A stretch of DNA of 64,000 bases from Escherichia coli (GCF_050920415.1 NZ_CP169309.1); one strand, 5' to 3'. Shown: positions 15,436-51,592, counted from the first letter of the stretch. The notes: generated from the sequence alone by a model not told the origin. A program made the numbers and translations.

Positions 15436-15484
15436 GTGGGGGTTGTGTTTAGGGCCGGGGAGAGTTGGGGTATGACTACGAAAG

Positions 15485-15690
15485 CCCGCTCTCCTGCGAC
15501 CACTTTTATCATAGGAGTGTGGAAGTGCTTTTCCATCAATCGCGATGACGTCTTTGTCATCTGAAGAATGACATTCACGCATCCGGTTAATAAAGCATTC
15601 GTGAAATTATACTGAACGGATACAAGACATAACTCTAATTATGGTGCCGTGAACAGGATTACCATTTTCAAAATTACGATATTATTTGCA
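15485..15690 (-). mobile_element. Internal fragment of an H-repeat (ISAs1-family) transposase gene (yafF-like remnant)
   Basis: About 85% identical over about 185 bp to 17423-17610; encodes ...[17 protein letters not shown]... on minus strand. Confidence 0.7.
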
Positions 15691-15706
15691 GTAATTATGT
15701 TATTAA

Positions 15707-16219
15707 TCATTGTGATATTTCCATCTCTGTGATTAATACCGGATACGCATTTAATTGCAGAGTTTGCACGAAATTATCGCAGATAACTGGCAATAACAAT
15801 AACCCATCAGCCCGCTGCTGTAATACCTCCATTCGTTCTACTGATTCAACATTAACAACCAAACCAAGGGCATTTAGCGATTTAAGGATCTCCAGATGTT
15901 CACTCATCCAGCGCAGAGAAAAAGGATCATCACCAATTATAAAAACAGGCCCCCAGCCGGTTAATAACTGGCGTTTCATTACGGAACCAGGATGAAGTCG
16001 AGTACATATTACAGGAAATACCCCCTGTTGCGATGGTTCCGATGATGTGGATAATTCAGAAATATTTTCCATTGTTAGTGAAGAATTAACATCCATTAAT
16101 AATGGTGAAACAACCTCACTTTCCTTGCTAGTAATGGCTGCACTAATCTGAGAGGAAAATAACAATATTATTACGTATAAACTCATTTTTAACATAACAA
16201 ATTCAATCCGTTTATTCAT
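15707..16219 (-). CDS. Hypothetical secreted or membrane protein (N-terminal hydrophobic signal); may correspond to the K-12 yafU/ykfM region
   Basis: 170-aa ORF in low-GC DNA, MSLYVIILLFSSQISAA signal-like segment; no recognisable domain. Confidence 0.45.
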   Translation of the reverse strand: MNKRIEFVMLKMSLYVIILLFSSQISAAITSKESEVVSPLLMDVNSSLTMENISELSTSSEPSQQGVFPVICTRLHPGSVMKRQLLTGWGPVFIIGDDPFSLRWMSEHLEILKSLNALGLVVNVESVERMEVLQQRADGLLLLPVICDNFVQTLQLNAYPVLITEMEISQ

Positions 16220-16285
16220 GTTATAGAATAATGATGCTATAAATCATCATTAATGTTCAATTATTTAATCACACAGTTTAAAAAA

Positions 16286-16789
16286 TCATTGACCAATGTG
16301 AATTGGCAATGTACCACTCAAGTTAAAATCACTGAATATTTTATCAATTTCTCTTGCAGTTTCTATATATTTAACCTCTTTCGTACTTGCATTATAAATA
16401 GCCCAAGCCTCGGGATGGGATGTTCCACCAAACCTTACAAAAAAACTTGATTTCATATTATTATATAAATTAACATCAGGAAAAGGATCTTCTCCAAAAT
16501 TAGTAGTATTGAATAATGAAAGTTCGTATCGCTTAGAAAATTCTATTGGTAGGATAGCTTCACTGCCATCAATAGCATTCATCCAGAGTTTGTTACCATT
16601 ATATTCCAACAATAATCTCTGTTTTGCATGTGTTTTATCTCGTTCTTTAACGACAGCGAATACCTTTTTAACAACCTGCTGTGCGGATGGTCCTATTGTA
16701 TTACCAAAAGATGGCAACCCGATTTTGCCATAAACACTCTCCTGAATGAAATAAATATCCGTTTTATCGGCCTCGACAATATCTACCAT
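16286..16789 (-). CDS. Hypothetical cytoplasmic protein
   Basis: 167-aa ORF, AT-rich, no signal peptide, no recognisable motif. Confidence 0.4.
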   Translation of the reverse strand: MVDIVEADKTDIYFIQESVYGKIGLPSFGNTIGPSAQQVVKKVFAVVKERDKTHAKQRLLLEYNGNKLWMNAIDGSEAILPIEFSKRYELSLFNTTNFGEDPFPDVNLYNNMKSSFFVRFGGTSHPEAWAIYNASTKEVKYIETAREIDKIFSDFNLSGTLPIHIGQ

Positions 16790-17101
16790 TTATCCCTCCA
16801 AACAAGACCTGACTCCAGGACAAGAGCATAGTGTGTAGTAAACACATCATGCTCTTGCCCTGACCATTGAAATAACAACTTTCGTTTGTTTACTGTACGC
16901 TGTCTAAATAGCTGCGTGGAATAAAGTTGCACTTTTTATCATCCCTTGTAGAGCAAGATTACGAAAGCCCGCCCCCGCAAGGGCTGACGCGAGGTAGTCT
17001 CTGTCCGCAGCTGCTTTTCACATCTTACATCTTGCCCCTGCCTTGAGTATCTTATCTTTCGTTAAAATATTAATAGCGATCTTCCGTATCCCTGAAAATA
17101 A

Positions 17102-17781
17102 TTATGCTGCATTTCCTCTTCTTATTTTGAAGTCGTCTTTATTCATTACCACTTCCAGATGCCAGTGCAATTTATTCTCCACTTGCCAGTGATTTCGGTT
17201 CGCTGTGGCGAACTTCTCTGCGGTTAAATCAGCAGAAATGCTATAATATCTGACCGTCATTTCGGGATTTTTCTTTTGTTCTGCTATTATTGAGCGAAAT
17301 GAGACTGCCATGCATAATTTCTTCAGCCCTTTCCATTCAAACGTAAAATCAATAAATTCATCAGAGACATGCAAACAATATGAAGACGGATTTTAATGAC
17401 ATAAGTTGCTCCCTTGTGACGAGTTTTATCATAAGAGTGCCGGAGCGTTTTTCCATCAATTGCAATGACGTCTTTATCATCTGAAGAATGACATTCACGC
17501 ATCCGGTTAATAAAGCATTCGTGAAATTTTGCAGGACTGATACATGATACAACTCTGGCAATAGTATCGTGAACAGGAATACCATTTTCAAAATCACCAT
17601 ATTGCTTCAAAAAATCGAGATGAGTTTCCCCGAAATCCTCTATATCTTCCCAGCCTTCTGCACCCGAAATAACGGCGCAAATAGTCAACAGTAGAATATC
17701 CGATAATTTATGCTCCACTTTCCAGGCTTGTCTGTAATCGGGGATAATAGAAATATGTTCCATCAATTTTTTAAGTTCCAT
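17102..17781 (-). pseudogene. H-repeat (ISAs1-family) transposase pseudogene with internal deletion, frameshift and 3' truncation
   Basis: ORF 17323-17781 starts [28 protein letters not shown]...; ORF 17102-17374 carries ...[24 protein letters not shown]...; middle of protein missing. Confidence 0.8.
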
Positions 17782-49639: not shown

Positions 49640-49656
49640 GTTTAAGGAGAATAACA

Positions 49657-50136
49657 ATGGCAAATCCCGTCTATCTGACACTGAACGGAGAACTTCAGGG
49701 GCTGATTTCATCCGGATGCTCGTCAATGCCGTCCATCGGTAACAAAGCCCAGATTGCACATCAGGATCAGATCATGGTGACGTCACTGTCCCATGGTCTG
49801 AGCCGGGCGCAGAATGTCAACCACCAGGAGCTGACCATCACGAAACCGGTGGACAAATCTTCCCCCCTGCTGGGCAAGGCCATTTCGGAGAATGAATGTC
49901 TGACCTGTGATTTTGTATTCTATCGCACCAACCGCTTTGGTGTTAATGAACCGTACTACAAGGTGAAACTGACTAACGCCCGGATCTCAAACATCGGCCT
50001 TACCGTTCCCCATACCATTAACGACAGCCCAGGACAGCCGGAAGAGTCTGTGTCATTTACCTATGAGAGTATCAACTGGGAGCACAGCGTCGCCGGAACC
50101 AGTGCGTACAGCCTTTGGAGTGAACGGATTTTCTAA
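49657..50136 (+). CDS. hcp: T6SS tube protein Hcp (TssD), core-operon copy
   Basis: ATG 49657 with AAGGAGA SD; 160 aa Hcp-like. Confidence 0.85.
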   Translation: MANPVYLTLNGELQGLISSGCSSMPSIGNKAQIAHQDQIMVTSLSHGLSRAQNVNHQELTITKPVDKSSPLLGKAISENECLTCDFVFYRTNRFGVNEPYYKVKLTNARISNIGLTVPHTINDSPGQPEESVSFTYESINWEHSVAGTSAYSLWSERIF

Positions 50137-50477
50137 GTTACCTAGGAGTTTTTCATCTGCATTATTGTTATATTTTAAAAAGGCAATTTAACATCATAAA
50201 ATAAAATGATAAAGTACGGTTAATCACGAATAAAAATTCTTAATTAACCGTACCTGCTGTTTTATAGATGTGTATGATGTATTTTTGACAGTTCAACCGA
50301 AAACTCGAACTACAGCTTATATGTTGAGAGAACAATAAATAACTTTAGTAAAGTTTTTTACTACTCCTAAAAAAATATATATGTAAAATTAATTAGCAGA
50401 CTTGAACCAGAGTATAAATAGAAAAGAAAATGCTCTTTCTTGCTAAGTACCATTAAAACGTCTGGTATAAAACCTTA

Positions 50478-51263
50478 CTACTGATAGCGATTCACCAGAT
50501 CTTTAACCACTGCTGCGTACGTTTTCTGCTTAAGTTGTGAAATCTGCTGTTCTGCCACATCAAGGCTGTCAGAATTTTTATTCCCTATCTGCGGAAAAAT
50601 CACTTTCGATTCATAATTCACAGGCGACCAGGTAGCCCACTCACCTGTAGCCACATCCACCAGCGTGAATCGAACCAAATAACGCAGTGACATCGTGTCA
50701 GTCAATTTTTGATTTTTATAATCTGACCAAACTATTGATTTCAATCCAGAGTCATATTTTCCTGTCTGCAACGTATCCTGGAAAACAATAATCGCTTTCT
50801 GATGGCCTTTTGCCGCAACAAAACGTAATGCCTGCATCCAGTTCATATTTTCGGCATCTACAACATCCAGACTTTCATCTTTGTTTTTGTCTTTATTACA
50901 AGTTACAGGTTTTTGCCTGTCAGGAATGCCAGAAAATGTGGCAACTGTATAATATTTTCTCATCTCCTCCTGCATAATGGTTTCCGGTGCGCGACTGCCA
51001 GACTGAACAAGTATAACGGGAGAATTAAGAGGCACACGAAACTCATCTCCTTCAAGCGCAGCTTGAATATCCTCCTCGGATACAGCCAGTGTGGTTTCAT
51101 TACCATATAAATCTTTGTCTGTTAGTTGCTGGGGAACGTTTTTATTAATAGAACTTTGTGCGGTTTGAGTTTTTTTCTTTTTTTCATCAATAGGAGATTC
51201 AGAGGCACATCCTGCAAGCAGCGAGAATAATACACATATACAACAACCCCTTCTTAAATTCAT
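50478..51263 (-). CDS. yafT: Lipoprotein YafT
   Basis: 261 aa, lipobox LLAGCAS; adjacent to aspV as in K-12. Confidence 0.8.
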
Positions 51264-51533
51264 AATCGGACACTCCCTCGCCTGTCATAATCATGGTAAT
51301 GTTTAGCTAACGATTTTTAATTATATACTCCACTTGAATCAGAACAAACAAAAATAACAGCAAATATAAATTCATTAAATCAATAGAAAAATGAAAATCA
51401 TAACATGCAAATATATTTAAATTGAATGATTCGATAGTATGATTAAATATTAATGATATGGTCTACCATATGTGATTAACACATTTACAGCATAACAAAA
51501 TCATAGACCGAAGAAATAGCGGGATTTAAATGC

Positions 51534-51563
51534 AAAAAAACCGCAAAATTAAAAATCTTGCGG
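51534..51563 (-). terminator. Rho-independent terminator downstream of aspV
   Basis: ccgcaa...ttgcgg hairpin followed by a T-run on the minus strand. Confidence 0.6.
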
Positions 51564-51592
51564 TTCTCTGAACTCATTTTCATGAGTGAATT

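Follow-up and report, generated by a model that had tools for sequence, protein, structure and literature searches.

A type VI secretion locus between yafV and aspV of Escherichia coli with a complete core operon and a split spike gene

Here we describe a type VI secretion system (T6SS) carried by a 64,000-nucleotide stretch of an Escherichia coli chromosome (GCF_050920415.1, NZ_CP169309.1; hereafter the window), in which the T6SS block lies between yafV (14656-15435) and the tRNA-Asp gene aspV. We conclude, with a probability of about 0.9, that this locus is the chromosomal E. coli T6SS-2, of the phylogenetic subclass T6SS-i1, in the yafV-aspV interval, and that it has lost its spike in cis through ordinary decay. 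As we read the sequence comparisons, the cluster is an old, widely shared locus in lineage-by-lineage decay rather than a mobile island of recent integration.

We compared all predicted products with the NCBIfam profiles, applying the curated cut-offs. TssB, TssC, TssE, TssF, TssG, TssJ, TssK, TssL, TssH (ClpV), TssA, TssM, TagH, VasI and both Hcp proteins passed the cut-offs of curated T6SS families with essentially full-length profile coverage (Table 1). All 13 core genes, tssA-tssM, are present: 12 are intact, and tssI (vgrG) is interrupted by an insertion sequence (IS). The rightward operon of 19.6 kb runs tssB-tssC-tssE-tssF-tssG-tagH-tssJ-tssK-tssL-clpV-vasI-tssA-tssM-vasL-hcp2 and includes the characteristic accessory genes tagH, vasI and vasL as well as a second hcp, in a V. 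cholerae-like order. An earlier note on this DNA, made from the raw sequence, had placed a T6SS between yafV and yafT/aspV with all 13 TssA-M functions, TssI/VgrG disrupted, in Vibrio-type order. The scan found every listed gene where that note had put it, with vgrG split by a 2,123-bp IS21-family element, and the order agrees with the published table for V. cholerae VCA0114-VCA0124 (vasE-vasF-vasG-vasH-vasI-vasJ-vasK-vasL-vgrG3), minus vasH (PMC5371669). The names given by the Prokaryotic Genome Annotation Pipeline (PGAP) to a 100.0%-identical 23.5-kb stretch of E. coli MFDS1022581 also agree with our component calls. VasL scored below the NCBIfam cut-off for TssA, and Hcp2 is 29% identical to Hcp1.

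Intergenic gaps within the core operon range from -37 to +109 bp and therefore leave no room for a vasH, kinase, phosphatase or PAAR gene; as vasI and clpV share 4 nt, no vasH lies between the two. A cryptic VasH-type regulon was considered and rejected, since the sigma-54 consensus TGGCAC-N5-TTGCW is neither enriched in the window (3 one-mismatch matches in 64 kb versus 3.45 expected) nor found upstream of hcp1/tssB or hcp2 (0 matches). A scan of the divergent intergenic region for sigma-70 promoters and terminators gave no more matches than shuffled sequence. Using both PAAR proteins of MFDS1022581 as tblastn queries, we found no PAAR gene in the 64-kb window (best E = 0.28). Together with the assignment of the open reading frames (ORFs) described below, these results bear out the claim that the cluster has no integrase, vasH, kinase or PAAR gene.

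The only vgrG of the window is in two pieces, with the IS21-family element between them. Inspection of the sequence itself gave the terminal inverted repeats of this element, TGTCAGCGCCAA / TTGGCGTTGACA, and a 4-bp duplication of the target, CACG, on either side of it; in strain N96 the target is unbroken (...GCTTCACGTCCGTCG...), with CACG in a single copy. In-silico excision of the IS together with one CACG copy yielded a single 743-aa VgrG ORF with the domains Phage_GPD, Phage_base_V and Gp5_trimer_C (gp27-like hub, OB fold and gp5 beta-helix), and the break falls after VgrG residue 514, within the beta-helix. Compared with the MFDS1022581 copy, istA and istB each have a 1-bp deletion (indels at 26569 and 27376), and the element can probably no longer move.

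The nearest complete genome is that of MFDS1022581 (NZ_CP169399.1), which has 15 differences from the window over positions 1-29127 (99.95% identity) and 4 substitutions with no gaps over 30325-54100. It shares the IS21 insertion, the group II intron and the Tle1 module with the window; in that genome ltrA and istB are unbroken, and the istA frameshift lies elsewhere than in the window. Between the broken vgrG and hcp1, MFDS1022581 has an extra 11.4 kb. From hcp1, this segment carries an intact vgrG (vgrG1), two hypothetical genes, IS2, a PAAR gene and a second intact vgrG (vgrG2), then Tae4 with a small ORF downstream (a presumed immunity gene), another PAAR gene, an M23 peptidase and one more hypothetical gene. 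Along with these 11.4 kb the window has lost, relative to MFDS1022581, both intact spike genes, both PAAR genes and the modules of the Tae4 and M23 effectors. The hcp1-proximal vgrG1 and the broken vgrG (vgrG3) of MFDS1022581 differ at few sites over their 5' 1.54 kb, and the N-terminal part of the window vgrG is a chimera of the two: 27570-28752 is vgrG3-type (12 of 12 informative sites) and 28762-29111 is vgrG1-type (4 of 4). The allele switch at 28753-28761 is the signature of one homologous vgrG x vgrG crossover that deleted the segment between, and the 11.4-kb loss fits homologous recombination between vgrG copies with its crossover in that interval.

The remaining cargo genes form the divergent hcp-vgrG-effector operon that the earlier note had described; the leftward order on the minus strand is hcp1-vgrG-tla1-tli1a (three copies)-tle1. 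Downstream of vgrG the Tle1 module has all its parts, that is, the catalytic and C-terminal domains, the adaptor and the cognate immunity genes. Tle1 matches the P. aeruginosa Tle1 structure 4O5P (E = 5e-119), keeps the GFSRG serine-lipase (GxSxG) motif, which is invariant in the alignment, and is 93% identical to an E. coli cluster of 662 members. Each Tli1a copy has a lipoprotein signal (VSGC), with pairwise identities of 79-90%. Truncation of tle1 by the intron or by ISAs1 was rejected, because the same end is found in the 662-member E. coli cluster and in the intron-less strain A30; this E. coli end is ~24 aa short of the Kluyvera and Salmonella homologues. Damage to tle1 by a 1-bp G insertion at 21996 was likewise rejected, since the insertion preserves the 697-aa form of the E. 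coli cluster. The MFDS1022581 tle1 is annotated with a shorter GTG start.

In a T6SS, TssJ, TssL and TssM form the membrane complex and TssE, TssF, TssG and TssK the baseplate. The growth of the Hcp tube and of the TssBC sheath is primed by TssA; when the sheath contracts, Hcp, VgrG and PAAR are driven out together with their cargo, after which ClpV recycles it. The rightward operon, tssB-hcp2, encodes a complete contractile injection apparatus except for the spike. The DUF4123 adaptor Tla1 would attach Tle1 to the C-terminal end of its cognate VgrG spike, which would carry it into adjacent bacteria, and the producer would be shielded by the three Tli1a lipoproteins in its periplasm. With vgrG split and the 11.4 kb lost, no working spike or tip is encoded in cis. 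Given the split VgrG and the lack of a PAAR gene, Tle1 is probably stranded and undeliverable. The tli1a genes may still protect against Tle1 fired by relatives, and the machine would be expected to fire only if vgrG and PAAR genes elsewhere in the genome supply the spike.

Several points weigh against this account, the first of which concern the assembly. An IS21 junction joined to the hcp1-proximal end of vgrG was found in none of the other complete RefSeq E. coli genomes (best coverage 87%). The 11.4-kb deletion is either private to this strain or could be an assembly collapse of the 99%-identical vgrG repeats; we grade a collapse as unlikely. Of the 15 positions at which 29 kb of the window and MFDS1022581 differ, 5 are indels (18573, 21996, 25800-25801, 26569 and 27376); one of the five is in a homopolymer, and frameshifts are made or removed in ltrA, the tle1 start, istA and istB. 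Some of the ltrA, istA and istB frameshifts may be sequencing or consensus errors in either assembly, or real pseudogenisation. If three vgrG copies had been collapsed, both the 11.4-kb loss and the chimeric vgrG would be artefacts, and the strain would in truth be MFDS1022581-like. The junction does lie within a 1.54-kb repeat with only 14 differences, the 1.5-kb 5' regions of the three copies are ~99% identical, the arrangement recurs in none of 5,426 complete genomes, and the indel-rich differences hint at imperfect consensus quality. However, the window is unbroken across an rRNA operon and a 2.1-kb IS, suggesting a long-read or finished assembly, the single-nucleotide switch is clean, single and confined to 9 bp, as for one crossover, and comparable recombinational deletions at this locus have been documented in sequence type (ST) 410 (PMC10711316). 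We therefore give such an artefact only a small chance.

The other points concern spike genes in trans, which, judged from relatives, are likely. MFDS1022581 has nine vgrG-like places, only three of them in this locus, and strain RMDEC465 has an intact orphan vgrG at ybfA-ybgA whose N-terminal 1.5 kb is 97.4% identical to that of the window. It is conceivable, with a prospect that is real although short of even, that the locus is still a working weapon, whose intact core assembles around VgrG and PAAR from orphan loci and which has lost only its Tle1, Tae4 and M23 cargo; this proposal differs from our best explanation in functional status only, not in identity. All 12 of the 12 non-spike core genes are full-length, about six vgrG-like places lie outside the locus in MFDS1022581, and the RMDEC465 orphan vgrG, with its 97.4% N-terminal identity, comes with a glycoside-hydrolase effector. 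In addition, it has been argued that lack of vgrG from the ST11 cluster is no proof of lost function, since vgrG is often at orphan sites (PMC12282107). On the other side, the window holds no intact vgrG and its 64 kb no PAAR gene, and clusters of this type are weakly expressed and repressed by H-NS in enterohaemorrhagic E. coli (EHEC) (PMC5363993).

Table 1. Features of the T6SS block and its right-hand border, in window coordinates.
Feature	Position	Strand	Basis or remark
ISAs1-family transposase fragment adjoining yafV	15487..15681	-	PGAP annotation of MFDS1022581; matches part of K-12 yafF
PFL_4695-family 'integrating conjugative element' protein, hydrophobic signal-like N-terminus	15707..16219	-	TIGR03765, 120.6 bits (cut-off 59.75)
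167-aa ORF	16286..16789	-	Kept at same position in MFDS1022581, N96, A30 and RMDEC465 (hypothetical protein)
ISAs1-family transposase pseudogene	17018..17781	-	NF033564 on two ORF pieces; PGAP 'frameshifted; internal stop' in relatives
Group II intron, ~1.88 kb, downstream of tle1 (tle1-ISAs1 spacer)	17916..19796	-	Rfam
tle1, T6SS phospholipase effector, 697 aa	19943..22036	-	Pfam PF09994 and PF22137
tli1a immunity genes, three in tandem	22027-22584, 22569-23123, 23108-23662	-	NF053804 Tli1a_fam, 207-212 bits (cut-off 110)
tla1, DUF4123 adaptor/chaperone for Tle1	23976..24740	-	NF053803, 222 bits (cut-off 200); DUF4123/tla1 in annotation of relatives
vgrG, C-terminal part (residues 515-743 of restored protein)	24753..25446	-	In-silico restored ORF
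IS21-family element, 2,123 bp	25447..27569	+	istA and istB: NF033546, NF038214
vgrG, N-terminal part (gp27-like hub, OB fold, beta-helix start), 561-aa fragment	27570..29111	-	TIGR03361, 585 bits
hcp1 (tssD), first gene of cargo operon	29328..29846	-	TIGR03344, 209 bits
Divergent intergenic region, AT-rich (32.7% GC), presumed promoters	29847..30547	.	Between hcp1 and tssB
tssB, contractile sheath	30548-31051	+	TIGR03358, 172 bits
tssC, contractile sheath	31074-32558	+	TIGR03355, 670 bits
tssE, baseplate	32563-32988	+	TIGR03357, above cut-off
tssF, baseplate	32994-34835	+	TIGR03359, above cut-off
tssG, baseplate	34799-35848	+	TIGR03347, above cut-off
tagH, FHA-domain accessory protein	35865..37145	+	TIGR03354, 424 bits
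tssJ	37142-37666	+	TIGR03352, above cut-off
tssK	37669-39015	+	TIGR03353, above cut-off
tssL	39038-39793	+	TIGR03349, above cut-off
tssH/clpV, sheath-recycling ATPase	39803..42535	+	TIGR03345, 1119 bits (cut-off 885)
vasI	42532-43275	+	TIGR03360, 272 bits
tssA	43280-44722	+	TIGR03362, 454 bits
tssM, membrane complex subunit	44832..48269	+	TIGR03348, 941 bits
vasL, TssA-like N-terminal domain	48281-49639	+	Annotated VasL-domain protein in 100%-identical MFDS1022581 record
hcp2	49657-50136	+	Hcp protein, above NCBIfam cut-off
yafT, lipoprotein gene	50478..51263	-	Common to K-12; divergent allele, 83% nt identity
aspV, tRNA-Asp	51593..51669	-	ARAGORN and Rfam; right-hand landmark

The earlier note had also called positions 15436-51592 a ~36-kb island absent from K-12. 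Alignment with K-12 MG1655 extends on the left up to window position 15494 and on the right from 50475, leaving a strictly K-12-absent block of 34,980 bp (15495-50474); the K-12 counterpart between the alignment ends is 1.24 kb with ykfM, yafU and yafF, as expected from the note's statement that K-12 has only a few small genes at this position. Within the note's interval, yafT and the aspV-yafT spacer (50475-51592) also occur in K-12, with identities of only 83% and 75%; rnhA, dnaQ, yafV, ivy and fadE are 96-98% identical to K-12. Nor did the word 'island' hold in the sense of a recent insertion, since the T6SS is at the same site in many lineages and K-12 itself carries a 31.1-kb deletion. 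When K-12 (L003 2625-3878) was compared with O111:H8 strain 08-4455 (L008 11165-42947), the two were collinear on both sides of a single 31.1-kb gap that ends within the ISAs1 pseudogene (K-12 yafF) and within yafU. K-12 is therefore a deletion derivative and not an empty site. On this alignment, K-12 ykfM, the truncated yafU and yafF are the remnants of a 31.1-kb deletion in a sister T6SS variant; K-12 therefore lost the cluster and our strain did not gain it.

One could instead suppose that the block is a pathogenicity island (PAI) acquired horizontally and integrated at aspV in this lineage, with K-12 as the ancestral empty site. The block is adjacent to aspV, its GC content departs from that of the flanks (~50%) both in the core operon (56%) and in the cargo and left end (42-44%; cargo ~43%), and the literature terms the locus a PAI and aspV a hotspot. 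Yet there is no integrase: all ORFs of at least 150 aa in 15436-51592 were assigned to other families, except yafT and the 167-aa ORF, both of which lack a family match, and the gene adjoining aspV on the block side, between the tRNA and the cluster, is yafT. Direct repeats of the tRNA-Asp 3' end as att sites were rejected, since a 25-mer of this end (at most 3 mismatches) matched only the two genuine tRNA-Asp genes and a 16-mer had no match at the block boundary. Furthermore, syntenic T6SSs occupy the same locus in distant lineages, and K-12 ykfM, truncated yafU and the ISAs1 piece (yafF) are the exact two edges of the 31.1-kb deletion of an O111-type cluster. The block does deviate in base composition and is missing from K-12, but it went missing there through a deletion, and the mosaic composition fits an old foreign origin with shuffling of cargo modules. 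We consider recent integration at aspV highly improbable, and retain the view of an old locus in decay.

At least 80% of window 29100-52600 was found in one place in 548 of 5,426 complete E. coli genomes, a count that misses the second, divergent (O111-type) variant of the cluster. Strains 536, A30, N96, RMDEC465 and O111:H8 carry it at this site and in this order. Window 30548-50136 is syntenic with L008 22057-41989 of O111:H8 08-4455, with 74% nt identity over tssM-hcp2. Amino acid identities per gene range from 44 to 94%: TssE 44%, TssB 55%, Hcp2 57%, TssF and TssK 61% and TssC 76%, up to ClpV 89%, VasI 91% and Hcp1 94%; the flanking YafV and Ivy are 98-99% identical. This mosaic of shared and diverged genes suggests allelic replacement or recombination within the cluster. 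A more tentative idea, which we hold to be doubtful, is that yafV-aspV is a site where two ancient, syntenic and divergent T6SS-i1 lineages (window/536 versus O111/K-12-remnant) replace one another via conserved flanks, with the machine perhaps active with orphan spikes and the Tle1 module serving only as a triple-immunity 'shield'. In O111:H8, hcp2 is followed by a full-length yafU (304 aa) and by ykfM, two genes absent from the window that may form an effector/immunity pair linked to Hcp.

The left end of the block holds features beyond those of the earlier note, which, like the IS21 element, it did not mention: the group II intron (~17916-19796) and two ISAs1 remnants. Both Rfam matches to the intron exceed gathering scores (RF00029, domain V/VI, 17911-17986, 62.8 bits; RF01999, D1-D4, 19610-19727, 93.1 bits). 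Its 5' end is GTGTG, and strain A30 has the empty site. The gene for the intron-encoded reverse transcriptase, ltrA (17988-19309), which is annotated in relatives, is frameshifted by a 1-bp deletion at 18573 relative to MFDS1022581. At the 5' junction of the intron we noted 15 extra nt (GATGATCTTTCCCTG) and a near-duplicated target (ATTACTTGA / GTTAAGTGA), both missing from the A30 empty site. The ISAs1 fragment at 15488-15683 is a direct repeat of 17408-17603 (84% identity), and K-12 yafF matches window 16960-17237 at 88.5%. Bracketed by these 84%-identical fragments is a conserved pair of genes, the PFL_4695-family gene and the 167-aa ORF (15707-16789); the latter has no match in Pfam or NCBIfam.

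To the left of the block the chromosome reads Flag-2 flagellar genes, hicAB, yafL, dpaA, yafJ, lpcA, fadE, ivy and yafV, and to the right yafT, aspV, dnaQ and rnhA, on into an rRNA operon. The Flag-2 portion (1-7210) is part of a lateral flagellar cluster with FliM/N-like genes, fliP, fliQ, fliR, flhB and flhA, and is followed by the hicAB toxin-antitoxin pair (7315-7942); these names were transferred from the annotated, 99.95%-identical MFDS1022581 record. Most of Flag-2 is missing from K-12. Two Rfam matches to naRNA4, a nucleoid-associated RNA derived from repetitive extragenic palindromic sequence, lie in the core flank above the gathering score (722-798 and 10645-10722).

Previous work has described this locus type repeatedly. 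EHEC EDL933 has a 37-kb aspV-associated T6SS island, and expression of this type of cluster in EHEC is low and H-NS-repressed (PMC5363993). PAI I of strain LF82 is at aspV and is common to 536, UTI89, APEC O1, S88 and ED1a (PMC2941450), the third T6SS of enteroaggregative E. coli (EAEC) 042 is inserted at aspV with an FHA gene (PMC2808357), and the Salmonella T6SS islands SPI-6 and SPI-20 are also at aspV (PMC2907695). In a survey of 131,610 genomes, 'T6SS2' is subclass T6SS-i1, occurs in all phylogroups and has often lost vgrG (PMC12282107). The T6SS-2 type cluster has an FHA gene, two tssA and two tssD, and in ST131 and ST410 T6SS loci of E. coli have been inactivated by IS insertions and by deletions through recombination (PMC10711316). 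We infer membership of the i1 subclass from 92-96% nt identity to 536-/042-type clusters together with these literature labels.

Our results matter little beyond annotation, and the first reading from raw sequence proved accurate. The locus is nevertheless a clean worked example of decay, in which an IS21 insertion has an identified empty site and a single vgrG x vgrG crossover, mapped to 9 bp, eliminated two spikes along with both PAAR tips and two effector modules. Reading K-12 ykfM, yafU and yafF as scars of a 31-kb T6SS deletion should be useful wherever the K-12 layout is taken as an 'empty site'.

Among known systems, the E. coli T6SS-2 clusters at aspV (LF82 PAI I, 042 Ec042-0210-0226, 536, UTI89 and APEC O1) share with the window the chromosomal site and the arrangement in two operons, with hcp and TssA-like genes in pairs, an FHA gene and clpV, at 92-96% nt identity over the core. 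Their cargo varies between strains, and a PAAR-like gene lies within the cluster of 536 and related strains, whereas the window has none left and its only vgrG is IS21-interrupted. The EHEC/O111-type clusters (EDL933 z0243-z0275 and O111:H8 08-4455) have the same site, gene order and accessory genes as the window but are deeply divergent, with Rhs cargo in place of Tle1 and a yafU-ykfM pair after hcp2. The large cluster of V. cholerae (VCA0107-VCA0124), placed in the same subclass in the literature, has the same order, tssB-C-E-F-G-tagH-J-K-L-clpV-(vasH)-vasI-tssA-tssM-vasL. The window differs from it in lacking the sigma-54 activator VasH and a sigma-54 promoter motif, in having hcp2 after vasL where V. 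cholerae has vgrG3-tsiV3, and in having hcp1-vgrG and cargo divergently upstream, which in V. cholerae are at auxiliary loci.

The effector compares with the Tle1/Tli1 pairs of P. aeruginosa (PA3290, PDB 4O5P) and EAEC Sci-1 (PDB 6SJL), with which it shares the Tle1 catalytic and C-terminal domains, the GxSxG motif and adjacent lipoprotein immunity. EAEC Tle1 is matched weakly (E = 2e-7), and, unlike either of these, the window Tle1 is accompanied by a DUF4123 adaptor gene. The processes of decay are those known from ST131 and ST410, in which an IS inserts into an essential gene and recombination causes a deletion with no mobile element at its junction; the gene and element are different (tssM and ISEc12 there, vgrG and IS21 in the window), as are the end points. 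We conclude that the system itself was already known, and that the IS21 insertion, the vgrG crossover deletion, the group II intron and the status of K-12 as a deletion derivative are added details of its ordinary decay.

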